From an uncultured Bacilli bacterium (GTDB lineage Bacteria; Bacillota_I; Bacilli_A; RF39; UBA660), in assembly GCA_910584255.1 (NCBI GenBank), contig CAJTXV010000005.1, forward strand, positions 5,700 through 69,699: a stretch of DNA of 64,000 nt, given 5' to 3'. The notes beneath the pieces were generated by a model. That model worked only from the letters and a program-made list of their open reading frames with translations. It did not search any database and was not told the DNA's origin. A program made the translations under genes and the position numbers. Positions 19,184-64,000 of the stretch are shown here, in pieces. Position 1 is the first letter of the stretch. The number at the start of each line of letters is the position of its first letter.

Positions 19184-19194
19184 GATTCCTTTTT

Positions 19195-21423: not shown

Positions 21424-21426
21424 ATT

Positions 21427-22990: not shown

Positions 22991-23123
22991 CAAAGTGCTT
23001 TTTTTCTTGCCAACTTTACATTCTAATCGTAAAAAGACTTGTCAAAATTTGTTTCAATAGGCTATACTTAAGATATAAGAAAATAAGCTTCATAGTAAGT
23101 CAGTTTGAAAGTGAGGAAGTAAT

Positions 23124-23567
23124 ATGGAAGTAAAATTTAGAATAGCAACAAGGGATGACATAAAAGAGATTATTGATTTATGTAACGTTGTGTTTATTGA
23201 GGATACCCCTTACGAATATGCACTTAAGGTGTTTGAAGAAACGAAAGATGATCCAAATAATATTTATCTAGTAGGAATAGTAGATGATAAGATTGTATCT
23301 CATGCTAAAATTACAGTGGTTCATACGATGTATGAAAAAATGAATACTTATGCGATTTTAAACCATGTTTGTGTTATGGAAGAATATCGTAGACATAATA
23401 TTGCCACTAAAATGTTAATGGAAATTGAGAAAATTTGTAAGGAACACGGGTGCAAAAAGATGGAATTATGGTCTAATAATATTCGAGTTCCAGCACATAC
23501 TTGTTATAAAAAATACGGATTTCATTTAGATGATGCAGGCTTCTTTTCTATGAATGTAAGAGGATAA
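23124..23567 (+). CDS. GNAT-family N-acetyltransferase (copy 2, identical)
   Basis: Identical 147-aa product, +8396 offset. Confidence 0.6.
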   Translation: MEVKFRIATRDDIKEIIDLCNVVFIEDTPYEYALKVFEETKDDPNNIYLVGIVDDKIVSHAKITVVHTMYEKMNTYAILNHVCVMEEYRRHNIATKMLMEIEKICKEHGCKKMELWSNNIRVPAHTCYKKYGFHLDDAGFFSMNVRG

Positions 23568-23572
23568 GAACT

Positions 23573-24754
23573 ATGAAAATTGAGAGAATATATATTGGTG
23601 GGTGGTTTCAACGTACTACCTTGCAACTATCTGAAATTTATGATTTTGTTCGTGATGGAACTTCACAATTAAAGTTAGACAAAAATAAACTTCAAAAAAT
23701 GAGAACTGACTTAGATCTTGCCCACGTTGAGTACAATGTAGATGGACTGGAATATTTAATGCTTACTACAAATACAGAAATTCAAATTAAAATATTTGAA
23801 GATGGACTTATCGTTTTAAATGATGGGGATGTCAACGAATTTTCCTTATTTCAGGACATTGAGTCTTTGGCACAGTACTATGAGAAAAAGCTATCTCCAG
23901 CATTTTCCTATCTCTTTAGTTTAGGTGCTCCTGTTCCAAAGGAACTTGCTAATATTGAAACAGTATATCCTTACTTTATTGTTTTAAATAATGCCAAAGA
24001 GGCAGAAATGCAAGCACTTCTTAGTAGAACGGAAAAACAAAAATATTTTGATTACAAAAATCAACATTATGACGTGGTTCGTGGAAATAAATATTATTTT
24101 ATTAATAATAAAACAAAGGATATGCATCAAGTGGAACGTTATATTGAAGAACAGATTTTTATTCGTGAGTTTAAGGCACAACTTCATCGCTATTTAAATC
24201 TTCATCGCATTATTTGGGAGAAAATCGATGAAGTAAAAGAAAATTCTCATGTTCGAGGAAAGGATATTATTGCTTTCAGTAATAAGATTGATGGTTATAG
24301 AAAAACGGTCAATTTGATTGATTCTCGAATTAATCAGATGAATACATATATCAAAACAAGAGAAAAAATTGCGAAGAGTGATTCTAATTTAATTGAATCA
24401 TTAGATTTAATTGGGTACCGCTATGAAACATTAATTAATACAGTAAGCTATATGCAACAAATTTGGGCAATGACAAAGAATTATTTGAATCAAGCAGCAA
24501 AATTATTCGATAGTTTGGAGTCATCTATTACTGAAAAATCAGTTAATAGTTTAACAATTGTTACCTCCATGGGTGTTGGTGCATCTTTAATTGATTTGTT
24601 TACAGAATCTGCACCATCTTTTTCATCTTTTGGAATTATTTATTTCTTTATTCTAGCAATTGTTGGGTACTCCGTAAATAAAATTATGAAAAAGATATCA
24701 GAAAATAGAAAATATGAAATTTCAGATATTGAGTACGATAAAAACATTAAATAG
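23573..24754 (+). CDS. Hypothetical membrane-anchored protein (copy 2, identical)
   Basis: Identical 393-aa product, +8396 offset. Confidence 0.5.
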   Translation: MKIERIYIGGWFQRTTLQLSEIYDFVRDGTSQLKLDKNKLQKMRTDLDLAHVEYNVDGLEYLMLTTNTEIQIKIFEDGLIVLNDGDVNEFSLFQDIESLAQYYEKKLSPAFSYLFSLGAPVPKELANIETVYPYFIVLNNAKEAEMQALLSRTEKQKYFDYKNQHYDVVRGNKYYFINNKTKDMHQVERYIEEQIFIREFKAQLHRYLNLHRIIWEKIDEVKENSHVRGKDIIAFSNKIDGYRKTVNLIDSRINQMNTYIKTREKIAKSDSNLIESLDLIGYRYETLINTVSYMQQIWAMTKNYLNQAAKLFDSLESSITEKSVNSLTIVTSMGVGASLIDLFTESAPSFSSFGIIYFFILAIVGYSVNKIMKKISENRKYEISDIEYDKNIK

Positions 24755-24799
24755 AAGAGGTTCTATCCAAAGAACTTCTTTTTCTAAAAGGAGGATAAT

Positions 24800-26536
24800 A
24801 TGTTTCGAAATTATTTGAATATCTTTGATGATTTTCGAGTTATTACAAAAAAACAAAGTAAGAAATATGTTTTTCTAATGCTTATATCTTCTGCTTTTCA
24901 TCATATTTTTAGTTTACTCCCACCAATTGCTGCTGCAGGAATCATTGCAATGGTTACAGAAGAGAATATGAACTTAGTTTTCTTTTATGGTTGTCTGTTT
25001 TTATTCTTTTATTTTCTATATTTCTTCGCATTATATTGGAAATATTTTTCCTATAAAAAATTAGGAGAGATGTATCATACAGAGATTCAGGATTATTTAT
25101 TTGAAATTATCGCATCCAATGATGATATTCTAACAAAGATTTCAAAAGGGAAAATCATGGATGTTTGTAATACAGATATTGGTTATACTGTAGATGTGGT
25201 AGATGCCTTTATTGGTGCGATTATGAATTTAATCAAAATCATTATTTTATTTTTTATCTTTCTTCACTATAGTATTCTAGTCGGTTCCCTAGTAGTCGTT
25301 TTAGTTATCTTTTATTTTCTTTTAATGGACTCTAATTCTTTAGCGGTTTCTAAGTGCTATGAAGGAGAAAGAAAGTATGACGATAAAGTCATTGATATTT
25401 TAAATCAGATGCTTGCAAATCTAAAGCAAGTAAAAACATTGAATTTAATGACTAATCTTAATAAAAAACTATGGAAAACCAGGGGTTGTTGGAAAGAAAA
25501 ATATACAAAAAGAAGAAATTATTTAATTAAAAGATATAGTATTTTACCTGTTATTTTGTACTTTACAAAATTTGTGTTATACATGATTTTGGCATCCATG
25601 GTAATTAGAAAACAAATGACTTTGGATAAACTTGTTTTATTAATTAGTTATTTTGAAGCTATTGTAACTGCAACAGATCAGACATTAGAGTACTTACTCA
25701 ATTTGAATAACTATAAAGTAAGAATGCAAAGAATTCGAAGTATTATCGATTATCCCCCACAAAAAGAATTTGATTTCGGCGACATTGATAATGATTATAT
25801 TTCAGGACTCATAGAATTCAAAAAGGTAAGTTATCAAGTAAAAGATGTGAAGGCATTAGATAATGTTAGTTTTAAGGTATATCCAAATGAGATTAATGCA
25901 ATTATCGGTCATTCTGGAAGTGGAAAGTCTACCATCATTCACTTGTTATATCGTCTTCATAAGGTTTCCTCTGGGATTATTTTAATTGATAATGTAAATA
26001 TTTACGACTACACCAATCATGTTTATACATCCAATGTCTCAGGTGTTTATCAGAAACCATTTGTTTTTGATATGAGTATTCGTGATAATTTAAATTTAGT
26101 GAATTCAAATCGAAATCTTCAAATTGAAGCATGTAAAAGAGTAGGGATTCATGACTTTATCATGTCATTACCCAAAGGATATAATACGATTGTTAATGAG
26201 GAAGATGCAATTGTTACTAGCGGTAAAAAGCAGCTATTGGCCATTGCACGAGCGTTGTTATCGAAAGCAGAAATCTTATTATTTGATGAAATTACAGGAA
26301 ATGTTGATCCAGAAACTACCAATCAGATTCTTTCCATCTTGCTTGATTTAAAGGCTGACCACACCATTCTTATGGTAACACATAAACCTGAAATGATGGA
26401 GATAGCCGATCGTGTGATTGTATTATCCAATGGAAAGGTAGAAAGCAAGGGCAAAAATAAAGATGTATACGAAAAATCTACTTTATATCAAGAACTTAAA
26501 AATCGTTCTTTTGTAAGTGTAAGTAAGGTAGAGTAG
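24800..26536 (+). CDS. ABC exporter, fused permease/ATPase (copy 2, identical)
   Basis: Identical 578-aa product, +8396 offset. Confidence 0.85.
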   Translation: MFRNYLNIFDDFRVITKKQSKKYVFLMLISSAFHHIFSLLPPIAAAGIIAMVTEENMNLVFFYGCLFLFFYFLYFFALYWKYFSYKKLGEMYHTEIQDYLFEIIASNDDILTKISKGKIMDVCNTDIGYTVDVVDAFIGAIMNLIKIIILFFIFLHYSILVGSLVVVLVIFYFLLMDSNSLAVSKCYEGERKYDDKVIDILNQMLANLKQVKTLNLMTNLNKKLWKTRGCWKEKYTKRRNYLIKRYSILPVILYFTKFVLYMILASMVIRKQMTLDKLVLLISYFEAIVTATDQTLEYLLNLNNYKVRMQRIRSIIDYPPQKEFDFGDIDNDYISGLIEFKKVSYQVKDVKALDNVSFKVYPNEINAIIGHSGSGKSTIIHLLYRLHKVSSGIILIDNVNIYDYTNHVYTSNVSGVYQKPFVFDMSIRDNLNLVNSNRNLQIEACKRVGIHDFIMSLPKGYNTIVNEEDAIVTSGKKQLLAIARALLSKAEILLFDEITGNVDPETTNQILSILLDLKADHTILMVTHKPEMMEIADRVIVLSNGKVESKGKNKDVYEKSTLYQELKNRSFVSVSKVE

Positions 26537-26584
26537 TTCATAATAAAAGTTTGTTAGTCTAAATACCTATGCTTTCTAAAGTAC

Positions 26585-26612
26585 CAGCAAGAAATTTCTC
26601 TTGCTTTTTTTT
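26585..26612 (+). terminator. Rho-independent terminator (copy 2)
   Basis: Same hairpin plus T-tract as 18189..18216. Confidence 0.6.
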
Positions 26613-26655
26613 AAGATTTGTGCTATAATATGCTTACTTTTAAGGGGGGTTATGT

Positions 26656-27579
26656 ATGAAAATAACAAATTTAAAGTTTTATGCTGCTACTCTATTGATG
26701 GGTGGTAGTATTGTATATTCGAATGTACAAATGAAAGAAATGGAGGCATCGTTTGAGGAACGCATTAATGAGTATGCTGCACAACAACAATTATTATGTC
26801 AAAAATATGATGACTTACAGGTACAATTAGAAGACTTTCAACAGGAAGTAGGTAAGACATCACATCAACTTGATTTATTACTGGCGAAGCAACAAGAAAA
26901 AAGACAAACTAATTATGCAGACGAAGTAGGAATTGTCGAAAATGATAATAGAATTAATAGTATTGCTATTGATCAGAAAGAAGATGGACAATATCTTTTA
27001 AATTTCTATAAAGTTGGAGTTCAACCATATGAATATATGGTAACTACTGACATTGATTCTACACTATCATCAATTGATGCTACTTATATAGATGACATCG
27101 ATACTGTCTTTTTAGATGGATGTGAAGATAAAAAAGTATTAGATGCTTTAAAATATTTTAAGAATTTAAGACGTTTAAACTTGGACGAATGCACATTTGC
27201 AGATGTTAGTAAAATTTCAAAACTAGGTGCACTAGAATATCTAAGAATTGCTGATTGTCCTAATGTTTCAGATATCAGTTCATTTAAGAACTTATCTAAC
27301 TTAAGAGTTATAATACTGAATGGTACAGAAGTAGAAAATATTGAATCTTTATCTTATTTATCGAACTTGGAAGTTGTGGATTTAAAAGGAAATAAAATTG
27401 TAAATCCTTGTTGTTTAGAGTGTTTACCTAGATTATATAATTTAATTTTAACAGACAATTGTATTACGGATATGTATTATTTAAATGGACTTATTCATAA
27501 TAATATAATTAGTGATATGGATGCAGAAGAAATCTTAAATTCTTATGCTTCTACTAGATTTAAAACAGGAACCATATAG
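26656..27579 (+). CDS. LRR (internalin-like) protein (copy 2, identical)
   Basis: Identical 307-aa product, +8396 offset. Confidence 0.65.
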   Translation: MKITNLKFYAATLLMGGSIVYSNVQMKEMEASFEERINEYAAQQQLLCQKYDDLQVQLEDFQQEVGKTSHQLDLLLAKQQEKRQTNYADEVGIVENDNRINSIAIDQKEDGQYLLNFYKVGVQPYEYMVTTDIDSTLSSIDATYIDDIDTVFLDGCEDKKVLDALKYFKNLRRLNLDECTFADVSKISKLGALEYLRIADCPNVSDISSFKNLSNLRVIILNGTEVENIESLSYLSNLEVVDLKGNKIVNPCCLECLPRLYNLILTDNCITDMYYLNGLIHNNIISDMDAEEILNSYASTRFKTGTI

Positions 27580-27590
27580 GATTCCTTTTT

Positions 27591-28850
27591 TTATGATTCT
27601 GTTTCTGTTAGTTTATTTTGTTCTTCCTCTCTTAATTTTTCTAATTTATCATTGATTTGTTTTAACATCCGTTCATTTGGTGAAGTATCTTTTGGAATAT
27701 AGTATTTTTTACCCTTTAGATTATTCGGCAAATATTGCTGTACTACAAAATTGTTAGGATAATCATGTGGATATTTATAAATAGTAGAGTGAATTTTAAT
27801 GGTATCAGGAATATCTTCACAGCGGCCTGTTCGAACATCTTCTAACGCTTTATCAAGTGCAAGATGAGCTGTATTTGATTTAGGAGATAATGCCATTTCT
27901 ATTACAATTTCTCCTAAGGGAATTCTTGCTTCTGGAAGCCCTACTAGTTCACTGGCACTAATTGCAGCCATCACTCTAGGTCCAATTTCTGGATTTGCTA
28001 GTCCTATGTCTTCATAAGCAATTACACTCATCCGCCGGTAAATACTATCCAAATCTTCCATTTCAAGTAGTCTTGCCAAATAGTGAAGGCTAGCATTTAC
28101 ATCACTTCCACGAATAGATTTTTGAAATGCACTCAGTAAATCATAATGACCCGATTCGCCTTTATCAGATATAATTACTGGTTTGTTATGAATACTTTTT
28201 ATTAAATCTAATGTAATCTTTTTATTACTTGAAGAATAAAATGCCATCTCTAATAGATTATATGCATAACGAAGGTCACTTCCTGAAAGAGATGCAATAT
28301 GTTCTAATACCCCTTTTTCTACTTTGATTCCTTCTAAATCAGGGTGCTTGGTAGCTCGATTTAATCCTTCTAAAATGTCTGCACTTGTTAAATCCTTTAA
28401 TTCAAATATCTGGCATCTACTACGAATGGCAGGATTGATTTTATGATATGGATTACTAGTAGTCATTCCAATTAAAGTAATTAATCCACTTTCTAGTTGC
28501 GGTAAGAGTAAGTCCTGTTTGTCCTTATTTAAACGATGAATTTCATCCATAATTAGGACAATTCCCTCATACATTTTAGCTTCTTCTACGACGATATCAA
28601 AGTCTTTTTTATTATTCATTGTAGCATTAAAAAAACGATACCTGACTCCTAAATCCTTAACAATTGCATTTGCAATCGTTGTTTTTCCAATCCCAGGTTT
28701 TCCATATAAAATCATAGAAAATATTTTCTTATTATTAACTAGATTTCTTAATATTTTATTTTCGCCTAGTAAATGTTTTTGACCGATCACTTCATTGATA
28801 GAATTAGGAGTTAATTGTAATGCCAGTGGCTTCTTCATATTAATCACCAC
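27591..28850 (-). CDS. rarA: RarA/MgsA AAA+ ATPase (copy 2, identical)
   Basis: Identical 419-aa product, +8396 offset. Confidence 0.85.
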   Translation of the reverse strand: MVINMKKPLALQLTPNSINEVIGQKHLLGENKILRNLVNNKKIFSMILYGKPGIGKTTIANAIVKDLGVRYRFFNATMNNKKDFDIVVEEAKMYEGIVLIMDEIHRLNKDKQDLLLPQLESGLITLIGMTTSNPYHKINPAIRSRCQIFELKDLTSADILEGLNRATKHPDLEGIKVEKGVLEHIASLSGSDLRYAYNLLEMAFYSSSNKKITLDLIKSIHNKPVIISDKGESGHYDLLSAFQKSIRGSDVNASLHYLARLLEMEDLDSIYRRMSVIAYEDIGLANPEIGPRVMAAISASELVGLPEARIPLGEIVIEMALSPKSNTAHLALDKALEDVRTGRCEDIPDTIKIHSTIYKYPHDYPNNFVVQQYLPNNLKGKKYYIPKDTSPNERMLKQINDKLEKLREEEQNKLTETES

Positions 28851-28922
28851 TTATATTTTATCAAAAAAGAGTACTTTTTAAAAGAAATATGTTATAATAT
28901 AAAAGGATTGTAGGGAAGTAAT

Positions 28923-29819
28923 ATGAAGCTAGGAAATCAGATAGAAGAATATCTAGATTATGTCATTGTAGAACAAAATTTAACCATTAATACCAAAAAT
29001 TCATATCAAAATGAATTAACAAAGTACATGGCATTTTTAGTAAGACGTGGTATTTGGAATATTGAGGATATAAAGTATGAAGATATTACAGAATACTTAA
29101 AAGCTTTAAGTAATCAAAATCTAAAACCTCAATCTATTGCACATTCCATTACTGTTATTAGAAATTTTCATAAATACTTTGTGAAAACTGGAGACTTAAA
29201 GCAAGATGTTTCCAAAAATATCTCACAACCTAAATTACAAAAAAAACTACCAGTTACTTTATCAGTTCAAGATGTAGATTGCCTATTGGATATTCAGATA
29301 GAGACACCATTTGACTATCGGAATAAGGCTATGTTAGAATTATTGTATGGTACAGGGTTGAGAATCAGTGAACTTCTTAGTTTAACATTAAATGATATTG
29401 ATTTAACTAATTGTACTGTACGTTGCATGGGGAAGGGAAGAAAAGAGAGAATTGTTCCTATTAATGACTTTATTATTGATTCTTTATCTAAATATTTAGA
29501 GGTGCGATGTCAATTAGAAAAAAGGGAGCGTTATGATTATCTTTTTTTAAATAATCATGGGAAACCGATTACAAGACAGGGCTTTTTTAAGATTTTAAAA
29601 AAAATATTATCAGAAAAAGGTCTAGACCCTAATACTTCTCCACATACATTAAGACATAGTTTTGCGACTCATTTACTAGAAAATGGGGCAGATCTTCGAG
29701 TAATTCAAGAGATGCTAGGACATAGTGATATTTCAACTACTAGAATTTATACGCATATTTCAAACCAAAAGGTAGAAAAAGATTATAAGAAATATCATCC
29801 AAGAAAGGACGAGGAATAA
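28923..29819 (+). CDS. xerD: Tyrosine recombinase XerD-like (copy 2, identical)
   Basis: Identical 298-aa product, +8396 offset. Confidence 0.8.
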   Translation: MKLGNQIEEYLDYVIVEQNLTINTKNSYQNELTKYMAFLVRRGIWNIEDIKYEDITEYLKALSNQNLKPQSIAHSITVIRNFHKYFVKTGDLKQDVSKNISQPKLQKKLPVTLSVQDVDCLLDIQIETPFDYRNKAMLELLYGTGLRISELLSLTLNDIDLTNCTVRCMGKGRKERIVPINDFIIDSLSKYLEVRCQLEKRERYDYLFLNNHGKPITRQGFFKILKKILSEKGLDPNTSPHTLRHSFATHLLENGADLRVIQEMLGHSDISTTRIYTHISNQKVEKDYKKYHPRKDEE

Positions 29820-29822
29820 ATT

Positions 29823-30989
29823 ATGAAATTTAAAAGAGTATTTTTAGTAATTCTTGATTCTTTAGGAGTAGGGGAAGCAATGGATGCAGCCAACTATGGT
29901 GATACTGGTGCCAATACTCTAGGTCATATTAATGAACAATATAATTTATTTGTGCCTAACTTAAAGAAATTAGGGTTTATGGATACTTTAACGATGGCGG
30001 AAAATGATGAAGTAGAAGCCTATTATACAATCGCTAGACCAACAAATCCAGGAAAAGATACACTAACAGGTCATTATGAACTTCTTGGGGTAAGGAATTT
30101 AGTGCCATTTAAATCATTTACAGAAAATGGATTTCCACGTGATTTATTAGAACAAATTGAACAACTAACAAAAAGACGTGTCATTGGAAATAAAAATGCT
30201 CAGGGAATTGATATTATTAATGAACTTGGGGAGAGGCATATGCAGTATGGTGCATTAATTCTTTATACTTCGAATGGTTCTAACCTGTATATTGCTGCAC
30301 ATGAAGATATTATTCCTGCGGCAAAACTCTATGAGTATGCTGAAAAAATAAGAAAAATTACAATGACAGAAGAGTTAAAAATTGGGAGGGTGATTGCTCG
30401 TGTATTTACAGGAAAGCCTGGGAACTTTCGATTTACAAATGATCGTTATGATTTAGCAGTAAAACCACCTACTAAAAGTGTTTTTAATCTATTACAAGAA
30501 AATGATTATGCTACGATTTCGATTGGGAAAATTACAGATATTTTTGATGAAGATGGGATTTCAAAGAAAATGAAAGCAGGTAATAATACAGAAGCATTAA
30601 ATAAATTAAGTGATGTGATGGATAAAAATTTTACTGGATTATGTGTTTGTAATTTAAATGATTTTGATCAAGAATTTGGACATAGACGTGATTTGGAAGG
30701 ATATGCAAAAGCAATTGAAGAATTTGATGTTCAGGTACCAATGTTAATTAATAAGCTTGATACAGAGGATTTATTAATTTTTACTGCCGATCATGGATGT
30801 GATCCTACATTTCCTGGAAATGATCACACAAGAGAGAATGTTCCAGTTGTTATTTTTGGAAGAAATTTAAGATTCCCAGAGCGCTTAGATATCTTAGAGT
30901 CTATGGGTGATATTGGTGCTACAATTGCTGAAAACTTTGGAACAACGCAATTATTAGTTGGAAAAAGTTTTTTAGAAAAGTTGCAATGA
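29823..30989 (+). CDS. deoB: Phosphopentomutase (copy 2, identical)
   Basis: Identical 388-aa product, +8396 offset. Confidence 0.85.
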   Translation: MKFKRVFLVILDSLGVGEAMDAANYGDTGANTLGHINEQYNLFVPNLKKLGFMDTLTMAENDEVEAYYTIARPTNPGKDTLTGHYELLGVRNLVPFKSFTENGFPRDLLEQIEQLTKRRVIGNKNAQGIDIINELGERHMQYGALILYTSNGSNLYIAAHEDIIPAAKLYEYAEKIRKITMTEELKIGRVIARVFTGKPGNFRFTNDRYDLAVKPPTKSVFNLLQENDYATISIGKITDIFDEDGISKKMKAGNNTEALNKLSDVMDKNFTGLCVCNLNDFDQEFGHRRDLEGYAKAIEEFDVQVPMLINKLDTEDLLIFTADHGCDPTFPGNDHTRENVPVVIFGRNLRFPERLDILESMGDIGATIAENFGTTQLLVGKSFLEKLQ

Positions 30990-31441
30990 TGAAAAAAATT
31001 GTATTTGTTTGCTTGGGAAATATTTGCAGAAGTCCCATGGCTGAAGCAATTATGAAAAAACTTTTAAAGGAACAAAAATTAGAGATGATTTTTCAAGTAG
31101 ATTCAATGGCTACTAGTTTTGAGGAAGTAGGAAATCCTATTTATCCTCCTGCACGAGAAAAGCTAAAAGAGAGGGGCATTTTAGCTTTCACACATCAAGC
31201 AAAAGTTTTTAAAAAAGAAAACTACGATGAATATGATTATATTATTGGGATGGAAGAGAGTAATATCTATAATTTAATACGTATTGTTGATGCCGATCAA
31301 GAGCATAAAATTCGTAAGCTACTTGGCCATCATGATATTAAAGATCCTTGGTATACAAGAGATTTTGAAACAACTTATCAAGAAATTGAATATGGATGTC
31401 GTCAACTTTTAGAAGAATTAATAAAAAGAGAAGGGGAGTAG
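30986..31441 (+). CDS. Low-molecular-weight protein-tyrosine phosphatase (intact copy)
   Basis: P-loop CLGNICRSPMAEAI (CX5R) and the DPWY motif; 151 aa. Overlaps the deoB stop by 4 nt. Confidence 0.8.
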   Translation: MMKKIVFVCLGNICRSPMAEAIMKKLLKEQKLEMIFQVDSMATSFEEVGNPIYPPAREKLKERGILAFTHQAKVFKKENYDEYDYIIGMEESNIYNLIRIVDADQEHKIRKLLGHHDIKDPWYTRDFETTYQEIEYGCRQLLEELIKREGE

Positions 31442-31465
31442 TATAGATTTTCTCCCCTTTTTATT
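31432..31465. terminator. Bidirectional hairpin terminator between the convergent LMW-PTP and DUF1540 genes
   Basis: aggggag-tagtatagatttt-ctcccct followed by TTTTATTT on the + strand. The complementary A/T context serves the - strand. Confidence 0.55.
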
Positions 31466-31649
31466 TATCACATTTAAAATTTTTACAGATAGTTTCTTTC
31501 TTATCAATAGCTTCATCACAACCACAAGTACAACCAACTTCTATTTCATCCAGTGTGCAGCAGTGATTATCGCAATCCTGATGTGTACAAGATTCTACAT
31601 TGCATTTTATATTTTGATTGTTAGTTGATTCTTTTTTCTTTTTACTCAT
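31461..31649 (-). CDS. Small Cys-rich protein (DUF1540-like)
   Basis: 62 aa with 11 Cys. Repeated CxVxxCxHxxC-like motifs (KCNVESCTHQDCDNHCC, VGCTCGCDEA, CKNFKCDK) typical of the Firmicutes DUF1540 family. Confidence 0.55.
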   Translation of the reverse strand: MSKKKKESTNNQNIKCNVESCTHQDCDNHCCTLDEIEVGCTCGCDEAIDKKETICKNFKCDK

Positions 31650-32377
31650 ATCTTCATCCCTCCTTTTTTTATTATGCCTTCCCTACACTTAATTTATACT
31701 AAAAATGATGAATAACTAACTGCTAATAAAGAATACATTTAAATTTAATAAAGTGTTCTAATTGGAATCGAGAGATGATTTAGGTTGATAATTACCCATT
31801 CGAAGAGAAAAAATAAAATATTAATATCAGTATTCAAAGTAAAAACAAACACAAACATATAGTTTATATAACTTAATGATTCTTATAGTATATATCTGTT
31901 TATTATATATATTAATCAGTTTTATTGGCTTGATGAAATTTAAAAGAATATAGTTTATTTTAATATATGGATATTTCCCAGGTAATGAATATAGTTTTGT
32001 CTTACTGTTAATACTATAAGTATTATGTTATAATATAATTATTAATTTATCGAAGAGTTATATGTTTGTCCAGGAAATTATATCGATAAGTTAACATAAT
32101 ATCAATTATGCGAAATAAAGAAACTCTGTTAGTTTTAATAAAGATTATTTTCTTTAACCAATAGTAAAACTTTATTAACTATTAGTAAATACATATTTTA
32201 TGTCATTATTAGAAATGATTATCATAGTAAATTAAAATAGTTGCTCAATTTTGGATATAATTTAGGAAATCAAAAAGGAAGTGAATTGACTCTAGATTAA
32301 TGCTTCTCTTCCCACTAATAAAAACTCTTTAAAATAACCCTATGATGTAGTATTATATTATTCATAGAGGTGACTGT

Positions 32378-33076
32378 ATGAGGAAAAAGAAGGAAATTAT
32401 AATTTATAAAAATCTTTCTCTTTTTTATGATTTTTGTACTGATTGTATTGAAGAATTGTCATATAATAAATACTTAAGAACTCCAATTTTTTTCATGTTG
32501 TTAGTTGACTGCATCTATTTATTTATAATGACGCTTCTAATACTGTTTAAAATAAATATTTATATAATTACTTTGATTTCGTTTTTTTCTATCATTTTTA
32601 TTAATATTATCATATATTATATATTTAGTATCTTTTTAAAAAGAAAACTAAGGGATTATTTACTTGCCTTGTACCCTACTTTTTTAAAGCTACTATCTAC
32701 AAGAAAGTATTCTGCTCTAAATTCACTTACTATGCTTAATGAACTAGCTTATTATGTTCAAAAGATTAAAAATCAATCTCAAAACAAAATAGAAGATATT
32801 CATCCAAAAATTTATGCAATAATTACTTTTCTACTATCTGCTATTTTTTCTTGGATTACCTCTCTTACATTGTTGTTTATTTTAATTGCAATATTTATAT
32901 TTCTTTTAATATTAAAAGATCTATTTGATATTATTTTTTCAAAGAATTATAATGAGTTTGCTAATTCAATACTCTTATCTTGCATTGAAGAACGTCGACT
33001 AGAAATTATAAAATCAAGTCAAAGAAATGGGTTTACAAAACTTAAATATGCTCTTAGATTAGGAGAATACCACTGA
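32378..33076 (+). CDS. Hypothetical integral membrane protein
   Basis: 232 aa with ~5 predicted TM helices that are very I/F/L-rich. RBS GAGGTG upstream. Lies next to a 730-bp AT-rich non-coding stretch. Confidence 0.45.
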   Translation: MRKKKEIIIYKNLSLFYDFCTDCIEELSYNKYLRTPIFFMLLVDCIYLFIMTLLILFKINIYIITLISFFSIIFINIIIYYIFSIFLKRKLRDYLLALYPTFLKLLSTRKYSALNSLTMLNELAYYVQKIKNQSQNKIEDIHPKIYAIITFLLSAIFSWITSLTLLFILIAIFIFLLILKDLFDIIFSKNYNEFANSILLSCIEERRLEIIKSSQRNGFTKLKYALRLGEYH

Positions 33077-56402: not shown

Positions 56403-57179
56403 TCATATACCTGTTAGAAAGTTTTTAAATGTTTGAAGATGACTGACTGCATTCACATTTCTAGTACAAAATACATTTTCAATCAATGAGGAATCGTAAA
56501 CATCATATTTGTTTTCAGGTATACCATTTGGAATTGCAATATCATAATCCATATGAGAATTACTACTAATTCCTTCATAGTAAGTAATTAATTGTTTGTA
56601 TATTGCCTCGGCGAGTGCATTATCTCCAATCTTACTACGAATGACTTTTCTTACTTCAGGATAAAAAATTAATGGCGATGCCAGTTTGGTTCCTGTATAA
56701 GGGGCTGCTATATTATAGATATTAGTTTTTCTAAAAGAACTGGGATTAAGAAAAAAACTAGGAATATAAAAATTCATTACACTACATTTGGACAAGCCAA
56801 TGATATTTATGGAATTGGTTCTTGGAGATGATGCTAAATTATCTATATAAGATGCATACAATCTAGCATCTTCTACAATGGGTGCCTCTGCATCCATCAA
56901 AAATAATTTAATCACATAATTGCCATTCTTTCTTCTATAATGGTTGATTACATGATCAATTCTAACTTCCTTCTCTTTAATATTCCTAAAATCCTTGGAA
57001 TGATCTTCTACTCTAGATCCATGATTGATGATTATATAGTCGACTTTTTCGTTTTTGTTATTGACAATTTTTTCATAAGTTGCAAAAGCAAAACTTCTAC
57101 CATATTCTGTTTTATTTGGACTGTAATTCCATCTTTGATTCGTTAAATCATATTTTGCAATTATCTCTATAGTTCCCAT
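56403..57179 (-). CDS. Hypothetical protein (second gene of a 2-gene cassette)
   Basis: ORF track gives 56403..57272. The likely true start is Met at 57179 (MGTIEIIAKY…), preceded by RBS GGGGGTG. ~258 aa. Confidence 0.45.
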   Translation of the reverse strand: MGTIEIIAKYDLTNQRWNYSPNKTEYGRSFAFATYEKIVNNKNEKVDYIIINHGSRVEDHSKDFRNIKEKEVRIDHVINHYRRKNGNYVIKLFLMDAEAPIVEDARLYASYIDNLASSPRTNSINIIGLSKCSVMNFYIPSFFLNPSSFRKTNIYNIAAPYTGTKLASPLIFYPEVRKVIRSKIGDNALAEAIYKQLITYYEGISSNSHMDYDIAIPNGIPENKYDVYDSSLIENVFCTRNVNAVSHLQTFKNFLTGI

Positions 57180-57255
57180 CGTTTCGCACCCCCAATTAAC
57201 AAATTGAAACATATTTCCTATTAAAATGATTTTTTTTAATCTTTCGACAATAGAT

Positions 57256-57780
57256 CTACTTTCGATTAGCATTTATAAATGCTTTTATAAATTGTTTCTC
57301 TGATTCATCCATGTTTTCTAAATAAGAATCATATCCACCTTTCATATATTCCTGATATATATCTGAATATTTACTACCACAACTATATTGGATGATGGTA
57401 CCTTGTATAAAATGATTCCTTAGTTCTGAAAAAGGGATTGCATATTCTAAAACAGGAATATTGGGATGTCTACTTTCTGGGTATAATCCAAATCCCCCAT
57501 ATTGACTCAATAATTCTTCAGGTATATTGTAAGATGCAATAAAACATTGATCATCCCAACCCATAGAAGGAATACCAGATATATATTCCAAGGCTCCTTC
57601 ATAGAAATGGAAAAAGTGTAAATAATCAATATTGGGTTTATAATTATGAGTGTTTAATCCATCATTATAACTTTTTTTTGGAAAACTAATAATTCCATTT
57701 TTATAATCTTGCAATTCATTTCTACTAGTTCCATTTCTAGTATATGAGTAGATATCTTCAACCACTCTATAAATTATCAT
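57256..57780 (-). CDS. Hypothetical protein (first gene of a 2-gene cassette)
   Basis: 174 aa; no recognised motif. A 77-nt gap separates it from the downstream gene. Confidence 0.45.
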   Translation of the reverse strand: MIIYRVVEDIYSYTRNGTSRNELQDYKNGIISFPKKSYNDGLNTHNYKPNIDYLHFFHFYEGALEYISGIPSMGWDDQCFIASYNIPEELLSQYGGFGLYPESRHPNIPVLEYAIPFSELRNHFIQGTIIQYSCGSKYSDIYQEYMKGGYDSYLENMDESEKQFIKAFINANRK

Positions 57781-57871
57781 ATCTCTACCCCCAAAAGATA
57801 TTTTTTTCTTTTATTTTAGTGATAATATTCATTCAAACAATTTATCATATCTTTGTTACTTTGATATATTC

Positions 57872-57952
57872 TTCTAAAAATACATCATTTACTCTATATA
57901 TTTCTTTTGCTTCATCCGTTCTTAAGTATTTAGGATTACACCTAGCAAATTC
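57872..57952. repeat. Copy A of a ~80-bp dispersed repeat (3' coding end of a gene family)
   Basis: ~75-80 % identical to 59193..59273. On the - strand it encodes …ELFEFARCNPKYLRTDEAKEIYRVNDVFLEEYIKVTKI*. Confidence 0.6.
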
Positions 57953-57992
57953 AAATAATTCAATTCTATTTCTATTAATGCATCTGCATCCT

Positions 57993-58334
57993 TTAAATAT
58001 TTGATAATATTCGGATGTTCTTTTTCTCGCTACTTTTAAACTTCAGGTTTTTAAAATCTACAATGTCATCTGATTTCGCATGAGTTTCAATTAGAAGTGC
58101 AATTTTATTCAAATCTTTATCACTAAAATCATTCTTTAATTCTTCCTTACTCACTTTTAGATTTAATATCCAAATACAATAACATAGTGCTCTTTCAATA
58201 TGTTCTATGTTATGATATAGGACATGAATTTTAGTATATAATTTCTCTTGAATACCTCTTAAATAAGTCATGTCAATATTTTGAATGCTACTTTTCTCCA
58301 TTTGATAAATCTCCATAGCCTTCTTTATTAACAT
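57993..58334 (-). CDS. Hypothetical protein, probably frameshifted at its 3' end
   Basis: The 113-aa ORF ends …KKNIRILSNI*. The conserved family C-terminus continues in the +1 frame to ~57850. Confidence 0.35.
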   Translation of the reverse strand: MLIKKAMEIYQMEKSSIQNIDMTYLRGIQEKLYTKIHVLYHNIEHIERALCYCIWILNLKVSKEELKNDFSDKDLNKIALLIETHAKSDDIVDFKNLKFKSSEKKNIRILSNI

Positions 58335-58371
58335 TTCTTTTATAAAATTGTATATTTATTTATGATTTCTG

Positions 58372-58919
58372 TTATCTATAACTAGCTACAGTACATTTAC
58401 CACTTTCATTATTGAAGGTTGCTCCTAACTTTTGTCCTGTTTTATCTACCCATGTATAACTACGAGACCCTTTTGATATACTTGTTAAAGTTCCCTCTCC
58501 ACCAATTTTTGCAACTAATTCTTCATAAGTGAATGAGCCATTATTTAAATTTTTTTGTAGTTCACTTGATAATGGCAGCTTTATTTTATCATTTTTTATG
58601 CTTTCTTTATCAATTGTTGCCTGAATTGTAATATTATCATTACTATAAGTTTTGAAACTAATCCAATTTTTAGAATCAAACTTCCAAATTGGATCACTTC
58701 CAATTGATGCATCTGTAGTAGATTCAAAACCTATAATATCATTAATTTCTTTCATCGTATTTGTTACTTCAATTTTTTTCATGCATTCTATTATAGTACA
58801 ATTTGCTTTTACATCTTCTTCTTTCTTTTCATCTAGCTTTTCATCATTGCATCCTGTAAAAAAAACATAATGTACATAAAAATATAATAGATCCTAATCG
58901 TATTTTTTTTAATTTCATT
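58372..58919 (-). pseudogene. Lipoprotein gene interrupted at a poly(T)9 tract in the signal-peptide region (possible phase-variable ON/OFF switch)
   Basis: ATG at 58919 encodes MKLKKIRLGSIIFLCTLCFF, then T9 (A9 on + at 58858..58866) shifts the frame (…LQDAMMKS*). With T10 the read-through gives a lipobox …FFFTGC|NDEKLDEKKEEDVKANCTIIEC joined in-frame to ORF 58372..58782. Confidence 0.55.
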
Positions 58920-59192
58920 TCCATTTCCCTCTTTCTATTAAATTGTATCAGAAAATGAATAAATCGTAAATCCTAGCACTCTAAAAACAAAATAACGATG
59001 TAAATATGAAGTAATTATAAAAATCAAAGAAAAAAACTTATAAAATAAGGTTTTTATGTCAATTGGTGCGTTTTGCACTTCTTATATAGTCAAGTTCATA
59101 AATATTTGATGAATTAATTATATCGTTTTATTTCATATCAAGCAATATATTTTATAATTATTTAATTACTATTTTTTTGCTTTTTCATAATT

Positions 59193-59273
59193 TTCTAAAA
59201 ATACAGTACTATCATTATATATTTCTTTAGCTTCATTTGTTCTTAAATAATCAGGATTACACCTAGTAAATTT
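59193..59273. repeat. Copy B of the ~80-bp dispersed repeat (start-less gene remnant)
   Basis: The - strand encodes …TRCNPDYLRTNEAKEIYNDSTVFLENYEKAKK* with no start codon. Homologous to 57872..57952. Confidence 0.6.
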
Positions 59274-59453
59274 AGTTGCGTTTTTAGTTGTATTTTCAAT
59301 TGAATATTTTTTGCCGCTTTTCCTTATTTCATAAGGTCTAAAAGAAAAAATAAACTACTAAATAAACCATTAAATAAGCATAGTCAGTAAAAACAAAAGA
59401 ATAAATTTTTAATAGATATATCATCTATCATACTTACCTTAACACATATTATA

Positions 59454-59549
59454 TGACTTTACTAGTGACTTTGTACTGTAAATTACTCGGTAAATGACAC
59501 GGTAAATCATACTGTAATTTGGTCTGTAATTCACTCTGTAAATATTATT
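59454..59549. repeat. Iteron-like array: eight 12-bp-periodic direct repeats
   Basis: GTAA motifs at 59478, 59490, 59502, 59514, 59526 and 59538, exactly 12 bp apart (ctGTAAATtact / cgGTAAATgaca / cgGTAAATcata / ctGTAATTtggt / ctGTAATTcact / ctGTAAATatta). They are preceded by tgactttactag / tgactttgtact in the same phase. Confidence 0.7.
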
Positions 59550-59838
59550 AATTTTTGTTCATAGCATTTATGATAGAAATATACTTAATAAAACTTATAG
59601 TGGCATCTTCTCTAGGCAAATAAATCTTTTCTTCATCTTCATAAAGTAATGCAACTAAAGTAACTTTATTATTACTAATAATTATCTTATGTGGTTCCAT
59701 AATACTTAAATTTGTTTTGTTAAACTTAATAATATGACCATTTATATACTCTACTTTCAAATTACCATGACTAGCTTTCATTTTTAGTTTAATTTTAATA
59801 CTTTCTGGGAAAATCAATTCTTCTATGGTCGTTTTCAT
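59548..59838 (-). CDS. Hypothetical protein
   Basis: 96-aa ORF with an RBS (GGAGGA) upstream. Stop codon abuts the iteron-like array. Confidence 0.4.
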   Translation of the reverse strand: MKTTIEELIFPESIKIKLKMKASHGNLKVEYINGHIIKFNKTNLSIMEPHKIIISNNKVTLVALLYEDEEKIYLPREDATISFIKYISIINAMNKN

Positions 59839-60084
59839 ATATTTAATCCTCCTTTAAGCAATGAAAAAAGCCCATAATATCAAATACTATGAACTTTATT
59901 TATAACTAATCGCTTAAAGGTGCGACTTTTAACCTCAATGGTGCCTATGAAGAAGAAGTCGAATAACTTTTTTCACAAACAATTAATAGGTAGTAATAAT
60001 TACTAACTAATATAAGTATAGCATGGATTATCAGATTTTGTTCTAAAAATTTTACTTGTTCGCTTGTTTTAGTTTTAAAGCCAT

Positions 60085-60092
60085 TGTATAAT
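60085..60092 (+). promoter_or_regulatory. Extended -10 element (TGTATAAT) driving the small peptide gene
   Basis: ccatTGtATAATttc located 66 nt upstream of the 60158 ATG; weak -35 TTGTTT at 60064. Confidence 0.4.
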
Positions 60093-60157
60093 TTCTATTA
60101 GGAAATACTAAACTGTTGAGTACTTGCCAACTTCTTATAGGAAGGAGGCTTGATATT

Positions 60158-60247
60158 ATGAGGAAAAAGGATTTATTAATCTCATTTCTAATATTAATTA
60201 TCATTTTATTAATAGTCTCTTTAATGATTCTATGTATAAAAAAATAG
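60158..60247 (+). CDS. Small hydrophobic peptide (29 aa), candidate type I toxin-like membrane peptide
   Basis: Very strong RBS GGAAGGAGG 9 nt upstream. MRKKDLLISFLILIIILLIVSLMILCIKK has one TM helix and basic ends. Flanked by a 5'/3' inverted repeat and four AGTACT palindromes. Confidence 0.4.
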   Translation: MRKKDLLISFLILIIILLIVSLMILCIKK

Positions 60248-60411
60248 TACTCAATTTACTTACGTAGATTAAGTACTTTACACATTTAATTGGGTAAGTA
60301 CTCAACTAGGCAAAGTTAAGTATTTCCCTTTTTTATTTTATGCAAGTTTCCTTGACATATTCATAATATCATATTTTTAAGTTATTGTCAAAAATCAAAT
60401 TTTTAAGAAAT

Positions 60412-61035
60412 CTATTTTTTTGCATATGGATTTGATGCATAATGTAAACTTCTTTGTCTCATAACATCGTTTTGCTTTAATTGTGCCTCAATTTTTCTGT
60501 TTAAATCAGATATACTTCTATCATAATCAACATCAGATATTATGTGTAATATATAAGAATCAACCATTGATAATTGTTCGTATTTTTCTGGCTTTTGTTC
60601 CTCATTTACTTTAGCACTTAATTGTTCTTTTGGAACTTGACTTAATCTAGTTATTTCTTGCCTTGCATATCGTAATTCTTCAGGTGTTAGTTTTCTTAAC
60701 ATTAATTCTTCAATAGATTCATTACACATATAATCATATACTTTCATATAATCTTCTTCGGAACATTCACTTGTGCCATAGATTTTAAATAATCTGGCAA
60801 AAATCTTATTTCTACTATAACTACTTGCTTCTTCAAGTTCTTCATAAGATAACTCTGATACTTTTTTTGAATCAAAATATTCAATTCTTTTCTTTTCAAA
60901 TTCTGGTTCATAAGATAACCATTTAATCCATTCAATATCAGGTGAAACATTACCAAATACATTCCCATAAACAATTTTAGTCATTCCACCCATTCCAGCC
61001 ATCTCTCTAGCCATAATTCTATTAAAATTGCTCAC
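60412..61035 (-). CDS. Hypothetical protein
   Basis: 207-aa ORF, acidic and helical. Confidence 0.45.
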   Translation of the reverse strand: MSNFNRIMAREMAGMGGMTKIVYGNVFGNVSPDIEWIKWLSYEPEFEKKRIEYFDSKKVSELSYEELEEASSYSRNKIFARLFKIYGTSECSEEDYMKVYDYMCNESIEELMLRKLTPEELRYARQEITRLSQVPKEQLSAKVNEEQKPEKYEQLSMVDSYILHIISDVDYDRSISDLNRKIEAQLKQNDVMRQRSLHYASNPYAKK

Positions 61036-61117
61036 AAATCAAACCTCCCTTAAGTAATTAATATTTTATCACAATTTATTAATTAATACTATAACTTGAA
61101 TTGAATTTCTAAATAAT

Positions 61118-61133
61118 TAAATAGGATGAAAAT
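61118..61133. repeat. Left arm of a perfect 16-bp inverted repeat (AAATAGGATGAAAATA)
   Basis: Reverse complement present at 61327..61342. A third direct copy of ATAGGATGA lies at 61363. Confidence 0.6.
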
Positions 61134-61326
61134 ACTATAAAATTTGATGATATCTAAAAGAACAGGATAAGAAAGATACGCATCTATATAAACTTTTTCT
61201 TTATTTCATAAGGGTTTATATATGTGCATTTCTTATTTTGCACTTGCAAAATTCATCCTACTTTGTAGGTTGATATTAAGGATAGATAATTATTTAATCC
61301 TTATAATTAAAGAGTTTTATATCTTA

Positions 61327-61342
61327 TATTTTCATCCTATTT
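61327..61342. repeat. Right arm of the 16-bp inverted repeat (TATTTTCATCCTATTT)
   Basis: See 61118..61133; the arms are 193 bp apart. Confidence 0.6.
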
Positions 61343-61371
61343 TTATATTTTTGCTGATTTTTATAGGATGA

Positions 61372-63228
<1,857 letters not shown>

Positions 63229-63415
63229 CTAGATATAATCAATTTTGATTACAAAATAAATACCAATATCACTATTGGTACAAATATAAAACAAGAAAAA
63301 GTCCATATTGATAAATTAGATATAACTTTATCATTAGGGCTTTAAAATAGTATATTTCAAATTTAGAATAATTGTTGAATAGAAAAAGAAATTAGAATCT
63401 AGTTAACTAATTTCT

Positions 63416-64000
63416 TTATTTTTTTTCAAACATTGTTCTTGAAGATATTTTCTTTTGGTATGATCTTACAGGAACGCCATCAATTTTTGCACCTTCTGGA
63501 ATACCAATTTCTTTTCCAGTTTTATATTTAACAAAATCTTCTATATTTTCATCAACCAAGTTAATCAATTCAAAAGGAACACCAATTTGTTTTGCAAGCA
63601 AATTTCTTGTGGCATCACTTAATTGGTAACCATTCATTTGTGTTCTTGGTTCGCCAAATACAATTAGTTCATCTATTTCGGCATCATCAAAATAACTTCC
63701 GTTTCTTAAACTTTGAATATCCTCTTCCTTGTTAGCAAATGACCATTGTAATGACAAAGTTCCCTCATCATCATCTTTTGTTGTATAAAATACAGTTGGA
63801 TCTCCATATTGTTCACTCAATACCTCATAAAAACTACTTAAAGCTGCTAATTTCTCCCCCATAGAATTATTGTGTGGATAGAATGAACCAATTCCAATTC
63901 TTAGAAATCCTTCCTTACAAAACTTATAGTAAAACGGTAATCCTTCTTCAAATAGATAATCTAATTCACTATGTGGATCTCTATAATGAGAAAAATATTT
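63416..64000 (-). CDS. Hypothetical protein, 5' end beyond the window edge
   Basis: ORF 63416..63862 stays open in-frame upstream to nt 64000 (…KYFSHYRDPHSELDYLFEEGLPFYYKFCKEGFLRIGIGSFYPHNNSMGEKLAAL…). Confidence 0.5.
   Translation of the reverse strand, partial: KYFSHYRDPHSELDYLFEEGLPFYYKFCKEGFLRIGIGSFYPHNNSMGEKLAALSSFYEVLSEQYGDPTVFYTTKDDDEGTLSLQWSFANKEEDIQSLRNGSYFDDAEIDELIVFGEPRTQMNGYQLSDATRNLLAKQIGVPFELINLVDENIEDFVKYKTGKEIGIPEGAKIDGVPVRSYQKKISSRTMFEKK

Follow-up and report, generated by a model that had tools for sequence, protein, structure and literature searches.

At positions 60064-60392 of a 64,000-nucleotide (nt) stretch of contig CAJTXV010000005.1 (assembly GCA_910584255.1, an uncultured Bacilli bacterium), a locus for which public assemblies carry no annotated gene combines a tiny hydrophobic open reading frame (ORF), inverted repeats and a cluster of AGTACT palindromes, and the question arises what kind of element this is. 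A first-pass annotation of the whole 64,000-nt stretch, called the window below, had proposed a small membrane peptide similar to the type I toxins Fst and TxpA, and had offered long-range pairing of the mRNA ends, antisense control or operator sites as explanations of the repeats. The comparative analysis described here suggests that two convergent transcription units probably form, at this locus, a type I toxin-antitoxin-like cassette that is complete in itself. The two RNAs and the peptide are very likely real products; that the cassette functions as a toxin-antitoxin pair is likely, at a lower but still clear level of confidence.

The computation delimits the cassette and reveals its wide spread. 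A query with the 43-amino acid (aa) TTG-extended form of the ORF retrieved seven proteins with the common core MKKKDLLISFLILIIILLIVSLMILCIK and variable tails, and the contexts of these first relatives were unrelated to one another, i.e., a SASP/ThiI-RsmD gap, the neighborhood of AspRS and a helix-turn-helix gene, that of radical-SAM and SDR genes, and a resolvase fragment. A degenerate back-translated pattern matched at least 119 stretches in GTDB species genomes, nearly all of them metagenome-assembled genomes (MAGs) labeled as uncultured Bacilli, Tenericutes, Mollicutes or Mycoplasma, from the gut of rabbit, goat, deer, mouse, chicken and human. This genome scan yielded 138 copies, which represent 107 unique cassettes, and a scan of metagenome contigs that was blind to the ORF and anchored solely on a motif of the 3'-untranslated region (UTR) added 84 further loci, so that more than 200 copies were recovered from gut MAGs of uncultured Bacilli/Mycoplasmatota. 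Across the 107 unique copies conservation sets in at 60064 and drops beyond 60392, at the two -35 boxes, and in an alignment of eight sequences the entire stretch between the two promoters is conserved. Contigs with relatives of a neighboring 207-aa protein were 100% identical across the locus and thus uninformative.

The cassette also occurs in tandem arrays of two to four copies with a spacing of about 350 base pairs (bp), namely at the loci L042 (5340-6090), L054 (4598-6067), L082 (5720-6548), L110 (69-2062), L115 (24-854) and L133 (3920-5473). The spacing of about 350 bp is regular in L082, L115 and L042, whereas L054 and L110 are wider clusters with distances of about 400-1000 bp. The arrays at these coordinates hold three or four cassettes, and adjacent copies often encode different peptide subfamilies. 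Within the window no second copy was found, and a covariance model (CM) likewise gave a single true match.

The peptide is encoded by the following feature:

60158-60247, + strand: ORF for the 29-aa peptide MRKKDLLISFLILIIILLIVSLMILCIKK with the stop codon TAG at 60245-60247, predicted toxin, from reading of the sequence

The gene described earlier is thus present, with its ATG at 60158 after minor corrections of the coordinates, and the strong Shine-Dalgarno (SD) sequence GGAAGGAGG (60140-60148) precedes this ATG by 9 nt. The peptide consists of a single transmembrane helix of about 20 consecutive hydrophobic residues with an N-terminal RKKD and a C-terminal KK, and it is devoid of Pro, Gly and Trp. 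The commonest product among the copies of the genome scan has exactly 29 aa. All subfamilies keep M-x-K-K-D, about 18-20 hydrophobic residues and a terminal K or KK (for example MHKKDFLISSLIIIIFLLIALLFTLVK, MRKIDFLVTALIIIIFLLIALLFVK and MKTKTFIIKVLKLIAIILLLSTLLVLAIKK), and this pattern of a membrane peptide with charged ends is held across subfamilies of 24-30 aa; other conserved polar or functional residues were not found. In 80 copies of the ORF-blind sample, an SD sequence and an ORF of 22-35 aa are retained in 67, of which 46 have 29 aa, the length differences between copies are whole codons, and the pooled ratio of nonsynonymous to synonymous polymorphism (pN/pS) is 0.38. These values indicate that the peptide is under purifying selection.

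The end of the ORF is a compact case of overlapping coding and RNA signals, in which Lys codons double as the template of an antisense terminator tract: the A7 run at 60238-60244 encodes two Lys codons and templates the U-tract of the antisense RNA described below. The A-run varies in length or sequence among copies (60238-60247 and the homologous positions in L006, L009, L013 and L014). An A6 run shifts the frame beyond the TAG, which results in tails (IKNSTQS...) of 36-51 aa; the TAG of L006 is changed to AAG.

The coding constraint bears on the possibility that the element is a non-coding structured repeat, comparable to miniature inverted-repeat transposable elements (MITEs), repetitive extragenic palindromic (REP) sequences or a pair of small RNAs, in which the ORF would be incidental and AGTACT would represent protein-binding or restriction-type sites. 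The multi-copy nature, the length of about 330 bp, the long internal inverted repeats and the intergenic location would fit such a repeat, and a 29-codon ORF is expected by chance in DNA of 25% GC with a roughly estimated probability of about 8%. However, SD sequence, start codon and frame are kept in the ORF-blind sample, with the pN/pS value and whole-codon indels given above, and the conservation reaches past the inverted repeats to the two promoters. Neither a target-site duplication nor a terminal inverted repeat was found at the cassette ends, where the flanks share only AT-rich chance 5-mers (9 of 39 copies). A repeat of the MITE or REP type was rejected because the inverted repeats are internal, the ends are promoters and coding constraint is present. 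Together with the replacement of the palindromes by complementary arms and the asymmetry of G·U pairs that are described below, this makes a non-coding repeat of any kind very unlikely.

The plus-strand unit, which is predicted to produce the peptide mRNA, comprises the following features (MFE, minimum free energy; the percentages are alignment cells paired):

60064-60092, + strand: predicted promoter of the peptide mRNA, with a weak -35 box TTGTTT (60064-60069), a 17-nt spacer and the -10 box TATAAT (60087-60092), from sequence and family conservation
60101-60128, + strand: 5' arm of the 5'-3' closing helix, composed of H1 (60101-60114) and H2 (60115-60128) and holding element A (UUGAGUACU), from the MFE fold and covariation
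60101-60114 with 60314-60327, + strand: helix H1, 88.9% paired, with AU 32 / GC 24 / GU 10 at one pair
60115-60128 with 60293-60306, + strand: helix H2, 96.1% paired
60131-60149, + strand: SD-sequestering hairpin H3, formed between the anti-SD CUUCU (60131-60135) and the GGAAG (60140-60144) within the SD sequence GGAAGGAGG, 93.4% paired, with CG 37 / UA 31 at one pair
60145-60219, + strand: helix H4, in which the 3' half of the SD sequence and the spacer (60145-60155) pair with ORF codons 17-21 (60207-60219), 95.0% paired on this strand, 21% G·U
60246-60258 with 60265-60277, + strand: 3'-UTR hairpin, 95.0% paired, with UA 53 / CG 19 at the central pair and a C·A mismatch on this strand
60292-60328, both strands: 3' arm of the long-range helix, which pairs within 60293-60327 and includes A'2 (60297-60305) and the 7-nt bulge UAGGCAA (60307-60313), from folds and covariation
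60329-60339, + strand: U6AU4 tract, predicted tail of the intrinsic terminator of the peptide mRNA, from sequence and conserved in the family

The -10/-35 pair of the peptide promoter is present in 100 of the 107 unique copies (TATAAT in 74, 17-nt spacer in 86), with a weaker -35 box of the form TTGTnn, and the predicted start of the mRNA is at about 60099-60101. The extended -10 box that had been proposed holds for TATAAT itself, but the TG directly abuts it and does not form the canonical TGnTATAAT; the family consensus is TGgTATAAT.

The RNA of the plus strand folds very stably. For 60095-60340 a free energy of -68.1 kcal/mol was predicted, compared to -39.5 +/- 4.0 kcal/mol for dinucleotide shuffles (z = -7.1, none of 200 shuffles as good). 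The 5'/3' inverted repeat of the first-pass annotation is indeed present, TTGAGTACTTGCCAA (60116-60130) and TTGGGTAAGTACTCAA (60290-60305) being inverted copies, and it is longer than described: 60101-60128 is complementary to 60293-60327 over 27 interrupted bp. When each copy was folded separately, at least 15 pairs between the 5' and the 3' end were formed in 94 of 107 independent copies, and the helix covaries, which supports the long-range mRNA pairing suggested before. At the SD sequence, GCC (60126-60128) additionally pairs locally with GGC (60147-60149), the local fold has -10.3 kcal/mol, and the mean unpaired probability of the SD sequence is 0.24 across the family. H4 is less certain, since coding constraint acts on its ORF side as well. 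For helices 7-9 of the MFE structure, which connect the 3' end of the ORF with the 3'-UTR linker, pairing in the family reaches only 41-50%, and they were not retained. In L030, L032, L047, L049, L074, L085 and L092 (columns ~236-255 of alignment A3) the 3'-UTR linker carries about 20 inserted nt, which repeat AGATTAAGTA and can form an extra small hairpin.

Covariation of the mRNA was counted on the MFE structure of the window in 76 representatives with less than 95.5% identity (alignment A3). RNAalifold on the raw MAFFT alignment of 107 sequences collapsed because of register shifts, and it was replaced by folding of each copy, counts on named structures and a covariance model. In the mRNA structure 88.3% of the cells are paired, compared to 32-45% when the partners are slid, and 23 pairs show double changes; none of 500 shuffles reached any of these measures.

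A chance arrangement in AT-rich intergenic DNA would be another explanation of the features seen in the window, and it is in accordance with the lack of a window-wide enrichment of AGTACT, of which 20 copies were observed versus 13.8 expected, a number reached by 9 of 100 shuffles. Locally the picture is different. The presence of four AGTACT within 184 bp was verified (60119, 60246, 60272 and 60297), whereas 16 others are distributed over the remaining 63.8 kb, and at least four copies in 184 bp have a Poisson probability of about 1e-7 to 2e-7, which becomes about 3e-5 to 6e-5 (~5e-5) after multiplication by the number of windows. Considering in addition the z values of -7.1 and -6.0 for the folds of the two RNAs and the more than 200 homologous copies with covarying helices, chance is refuted by the comparative data and its probability is negligible.

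The search for a convergent promoter that had been recommended for this locus was successful, because a near-consensus promoter on the minus strand faces the 3' end of the ORF. The features of the minus-strand unit are (SL, stem-loops numbered from the 5' end of the antisense RNA):

60391-60363, - strand: predicted antisense promoter, with the -35 box TTGACA (60391-60386), a 17-nt spacer and the extended -10 box TGaTATTAT (60371-60363), 11 of 12 positions matching, with TG
60358-60238, - strand: predicted antisense RNA of about 120 nt, antitoxin candidate, composed of SL1, an A-rich linker, SL2, SL3 and U7, from fold, CM and covariation
60358-60340, - strand: SL1 with a GAAA loop, outside of the mRNA end
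60277-60246, - strand: SL3, the antisense terminator stem with the arms A' (60246-60254) and A2 (60269-60277), followed by U7 (60244-60238), -13.0 kcal/mol on this strand

All 79 anchored copies have this promoter. Its -10 box is TATTAT-like and comes with TGn in 76 of them, the spacer measures 17 nt in 73, and the -35 box (TTGnnA) varies between TTGACA, TTGTAA, TTGATA and others. The antisense RNA folds into three hairpins with -35 kcal/mol (z = -6.0). The stem of SL1 changes its sequence and stays paired (CAAG/CUUG, GCAAG/CUUGC, AUGAAG/CUUCAU). Across the alignment to the antisense model 96.6% of the cells are paired, compensatory changes occur in 21 of 23 pairs, and none of 500 shuffles matches this. 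For SL3 98.2% are paired with double changes in all 10 pairs, for SL2 95.2% with double changes in 11 of 13 pairs. SL3 and U7 form an intrinsic terminator on the minus strand only, which overlaps the stop codon of the ORF. The region 60292-60328, when folded locally, gives a terminator hairpin of the mRNA on the plus strand (-13.3 kcal/mol) and SL2 on the minus strand (-14.3 kcal/mol). The antisense control that had been one of the initial proposals is therefore supported by a convergent promoter, three antisense hairpins and a terminator that are conserved and covarying.

Because the mRNA has its own 3' hairpin and U6AU4 tract while the antisense RNA ends at U7, the two predicted RNAs overlap in a 3' region of about 100 nt, from the Lys-Lys-stop codons to the mRNA terminator, with full complementarity. 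The apical loop of SL2 (60313-60308) is complementary to the mRNA bulge UAGGCAA (60307-60313), and the loop of SL3 is opposite to the loop of the 3'-UTR hairpin of the mRNA. As judged from column conservation, the SL2-loop/bulge and SL3-loop segments are the most variable parts of the cassette.

The covariance model R1 of the antisense RNA has one true match in the 64-kb window (128 bits, E = 2e-19) and 150 matches in 127 other sources, some of which had been missed by the peptide pattern. In two copies, L017 (693-950) and L064 (5624-5876), the ORF is intact or extended and the 3' half, i.e., the antisense unit, is swapped for unrelated sequence; they can be regarded as decayed or recombined cassettes without the antitoxin side.

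G·U pairs are strand-specific, and therefore the paired fraction can be compared between strands:

H1+H2: + strand 92.7%, - strand 85.5%
H3: + strand 93.4%, - strand 82.5%
H4: + strand 95.0%, - strand 74.6%
SL2: + strand 80.5%, - strand 91.2%

In addition, both antisense hairpins keep, in the CM alignment, a conserved U·G that corresponds to a C·A mismatch in the mRNA. These patterns point to each strand carrying its own selected structure, the mRNA helices on the plus strand and SL2 on the minus strand, and because of the G·U asymmetry selection would act on the level of RNA and not of DNA.

The AGTACT copies form the centers of four 9-mers that are complementary to one another and build helices on both strands:

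60116-60124: A, UUGAGUACU, 9-mer with AGTACT core
60246-60254: A', AGUACUCAA, 9-mer with AGTACT core
60269-60277: A2, UUAAGUACU, 9-mer with AGTACT core
60297-60305: A'2, AGUACUCAA, 9-mer with AGTACT core

A and A2 are each complementary to both A' and A'2. The positions 60122/60248/60275 are G/C/G in 19 of the 76 representatives (20 including one that is gapped at the third site) and A/T/A in 50, while 60299 stays T. Through this exchange AGTACT is converted to AGCACT/AGTGCT, and the palindrome is lost while the complementarity between arms is kept. Because non-palindromic complementary arms replace the palindromes in 19-20 of the 76 representatives, operators and restriction sites were rejected as explanations of AGTACT, and the operator proposal of the first-pass annotation has to be given up.

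The alternative pairing of A with A' is kept as well as the MFE pairing (96.2% paired, AU 51 / GC 20). This suggests a folding intermediate or, alternatively, a second contact, made in trans by the antisense A2 copy with the 5' UTR. The three-way covariation, in which changes of A and A2 go along with changes of A', whereas A'2 retains its U and is tolerated only as G·U, would fit selection on more than one partner. It is conceivable, though we regard it as tentative, that the four 9-mers form a conformational switch by which a single short antisense RNA would both unlock and destroy the mRNA. During transcription, A would pair first with A' at the stop codon, it would then be passed to A'2 while A' pairs with A2, resulting in the locked mRNA, and the antisense RNA would invade two sites, in cis at the 3' arm and in trans at the 5' UTR via the complement of A2.

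How might such a cassette work? Transcription, toxicity and the mode of antisense action are deduced from the sequence in the following model. The plus-strand unit would produce an mRNA of about 240 nt for the 29-aa single-helix membrane peptide, and the full-length mRNA would be compact and poorly translatable because of the 5'-3' helix and the local anti-SD hairpin. The minus-strand unit, with its stronger-looking extended -10 promoter, would give rise to the three-hairpin antisense RNA of about 120 nt, whose apical loops would contact the complementary bulge and loop in the 3' region of the mRNA. These segments would suit copy-specific nucleation sites, because they are the most variable of the cassette. 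A long duplex would then inactivate the mRNA, most likely by double-strand-specific cleavage and decay, as in txpA/RatA. When the level of the antisense RNA falls, the peptide would be made and enter the membrane.

Several observations weigh against this model or restrict it. Both promoters and both terminators are predictions. According to modeling, the unpaired probability of the SD sequence rises only from 0.24 to 0.31 when the 3' region is blocked, so that it is mostly paired either way. A role of the antisense RNA as a direct translational blocker is unsupported by this accessibility modeling, and because blocking of the 3' region barely shifts the SD accessibility, duplex-triggered decay of the RatA type is favored over a direct block. 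Candidate routes to translation are processing, melting of the 5-bp anti-SD stem and co-transcriptional windows. Covariation was counted per sequence with no correction for phylogeny, a single subclade is distinguished by the main compensatory change, and the model served as the template to which alignment A5 was fitted. About one fifth of the copies have frameshifted or extended ORFs that result from changes in the length of the A-run. The peptide has no match to known toxin families in Pfam or NCBIfam, even at E <= 10; the only library matches were chance-level matches to unrelated models with E values of 2-10. Plasmid and phage collections yielded no match for the locus (blastn) or the peptide (tblastn, for which the low-complexity filter may mask peptide matches), and a viral contig collection yielded none for the peptide pattern or the RNA-motif pattern. 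Due to this absence a role in the stabilization of mobile elements is not indicated.

The same absence from phages and plasmids would be in agreement with a different function of the same two-RNA cassette, in which the peptide is a non-toxic small membrane protein, e.g., a modulator of a transporter or sensor, the level of which is tuned by the cis-antisense RNA, and not an addiction or stress toxin. Toxicity of the peptide is itself a deduction, some copies are located between core genes (SASP/ThiI/RsmD), and Fozo et al. reported that some of their candidates were non-toxic when overproduced (PMC2887945). However, the cassette is autonomous in unrelated contexts and forms arrays of two to four copies, a behavior that is typical of selfish toxin-antitoxin modules but not of an accessory protein with a housekeeping role, its mRNA would be silenced in layers by the 5'-3' lock and the anti-SD hairpin, and apart from its charged ends the peptide lacks conserved polar or functional residues. 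A non-toxic regulator therefore seems unlikely, although it is to be taken more seriously than a non-coding repeat, and a toxin-antitoxin pair is the preferred interpretation.

The surroundings of the cassette in the window contain the recombinase and the iterons mentioned in the first-pass annotation, i.e., a serine recombinase gene at 62065-63207 and a 12-nt x 5.7 repeat array at 59476-59543. The former encodes a large serine recombinase of 380 aa with Resolvase, Recombinase and Zn-ribbon domains, and it was the only protein identified when the peptide and nine neighboring ORFs were scanned against Pfam, PHROGs and NCBIfam. The iteron-like array consists of 5.7 copies of the 12-nt unit CTGTAAATCACT with 73% matches, it is situated just past the stop codon (3' end) of a 96-aa orphan ORF on the minus strand (59548-59838), and three weaker arrays with 11-12-nt units are present at 59148-59377. 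The region 56403-63862 is a block of minus-strand orphan ORFs without a Pfam, PHROG or NCBIfam family, plus the recombinase; it is 100% identical in two other public assemblies and is probably an integrated element of unknown type. Further upstream, 14437-22832 is perfectly duplicated as a direct tandem repeat at 22833-31228 (period 8396 bp): the ORFs at 15177-22593 recur at 23573-30989, and all AGTACT and blast matches reappear at +8396. Either the duplication is genuine and recent, or it is an artefact of the assembly. At about 31000-32500 the GC skew changes its sign and the cumulative skew peaks, and the genes change from the plus strand upstream to the minus strand downstream, which makes this region a terminus-like convergence point; the GC content also falls here, from about 0.31 to about 0.25.

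Type I families are difficult to detect, since their peptides are very small, lack annotation and have no sequence in common. The distribution known so far is narrow, having been established in cultured Proteobacteria and Firmicutes (PMC8309996, PMC5367252). The cassette would add a well-delimited and abundant family from uncultured gut Bacilli/Mycoplasmatota with small genomes (rabbits, goats, mice, chickens, humans). The more than 200 natural variants provide an unusually clean covariation for both RNAs, and because of them the model is specified precisely enough to be tested, from exact promoters and RNA ends to the helices and a candidate site of loop-bulge nucleation. The cassette would also join features that are otherwise split, namely, the 3'-overlapping antisense RNA of Gram-positive and the 5'-3' mRNA lock of Gram-negative systems.

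How does the cassette compare to known families? For the whole window Rfam 15 gave no match at the gathering score, and within 59800-60500 only unrelated families appeared at E <= 10 (mir-203, snoRNA and similar); a literature search for the peptide string gave no match. Type I toxins are usually shorter than about 70 aa and have a transmembrane stretch and a polar or charged cluster at the C-terminus (PMC2887945), and the 29-aa peptide agrees in size, transmembrane helix and charged C-terminus. At the level of sequence prediction and comparison, the antisense RNA has its own promoter and terminator. Cis structures that would limit the translation of the toxin are represented by the anti-SD hairpin and the 5'-3' lock, which both covary. 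Fozo et al. (2010) took tandem repetition as a distinguishing mark of type I loci, which are often intergenic and missed by gene callers (PMC2887945); this is true for the cassette, with the window itself having a single copy. The Fst/Ldr family is characterized by APxxxG(C) and by a Trp after the helix together with a charged tail (PMC8309996, PMC2887945). The peptide has neither of these signatures and no match to the Fst_toxin hidden Markov model, so that the proposed resemblance to Fst/TxpA stands as a likeness of kind, but not as membership in a Pfam or NCBIfam toxin family.

The convergent layout with overlapping 3' ends has been reported for all Gram-positive type I systems (PMC4147584). 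The cassette shares with txpA/RatA, bsrG/SR4, bsrE/SR5 and yonT/SR6 of Bacillus subtilis the combination of an mRNA for a hydrophobic peptide and a convergent cis-antisense RNA. In these systems the antisense RNA has about 100-200 nt, the 3' overlap is about 75-120 nt, and SD sequence and start codon are untouched; the overlap of the cassette is about 100 nt. RatA acts by RNase III-dependent decay, and SR4 additionally tightens a stem that sequesters the SD sequence (PMC4147584). In the cassette the SD sequence is in a 5-bp stem and the modeled antisense RNA seems not to alter its access directly, and because of this the degradation model of the RatA type is the closest match. Differences are that the peptide does not reach the length of TxpA (59 aa) or YonT (58 aa), that the 5' end of the mRNA would be locked to its 3' end, that the hosts are uncultured gut Bacilli/Mycoplasmatota, and that the B. 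subtilis loci reside in prophage or skin elements, whereas the cassette was not seen in phage and viral collections.

With the par locus on pAD1, a plasmid from Enterococcus faecalis (Fst, RNA I - RNA II), the cassette has in common convergent RNAs, an SD sequence in a stem-loop and a 5' helix. In par, an upstream helix at the 5' end stabilizes the toxin RNA, the interaction starts at terminator loops, and direct repeats allow the antitoxin to pair also with the 5' region (PMC8309996, PMC4147584). Similarly, A in the 5' UTR and A2 in the 3' UTR of the cassette are direct repeats, which would allow pairing of A with the antisense copy of A2, and the three-way covariation of A, A' and A2 is compatible with such a pairing in trans. 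However, the RNAs of the cassette would have separate terminators, while par has one shared bidirectional terminator, and the putative 5' contact in trans would comprise only about 9 bp.

In hok/Sok of plasmid R1 and aapA1/IsoA1 of Helicobacter pylori, an interaction of the 5' and 3' ends keeps the full-length toxin mRNA inert, and local metastable hairpins cover the SD sequence during transcription. By analogy, the cassette may work alike through its 5'-3' helix of 27 bp and its local hairpin at the SD sequence. Nevertheless, in these systems the antisense RNA targets the 5' or initiation region and activation occurs by 3' trimming, whereas the antisense RNA of the cassette covers the 3' arm of the lock; the phyla are different and homology is undetectable. 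The type I toxins of Clostridioides difficile are longer than the cassette peptide. CD2517.1/RCd8 and its relatives in this species resemble the cassette as multicopy modules of gut Firmicutes with small hydrophobic toxins and convergent cis-antisense RNAs (PMC5961336, PMC6563280). They are described beside CRISPR arrays and in prophages, and no Rfam family matched the window. Taken together, the comparison with known systems leads to the verdict that the cassette appears to represent a new family of type I toxin-antitoxin-like modules.

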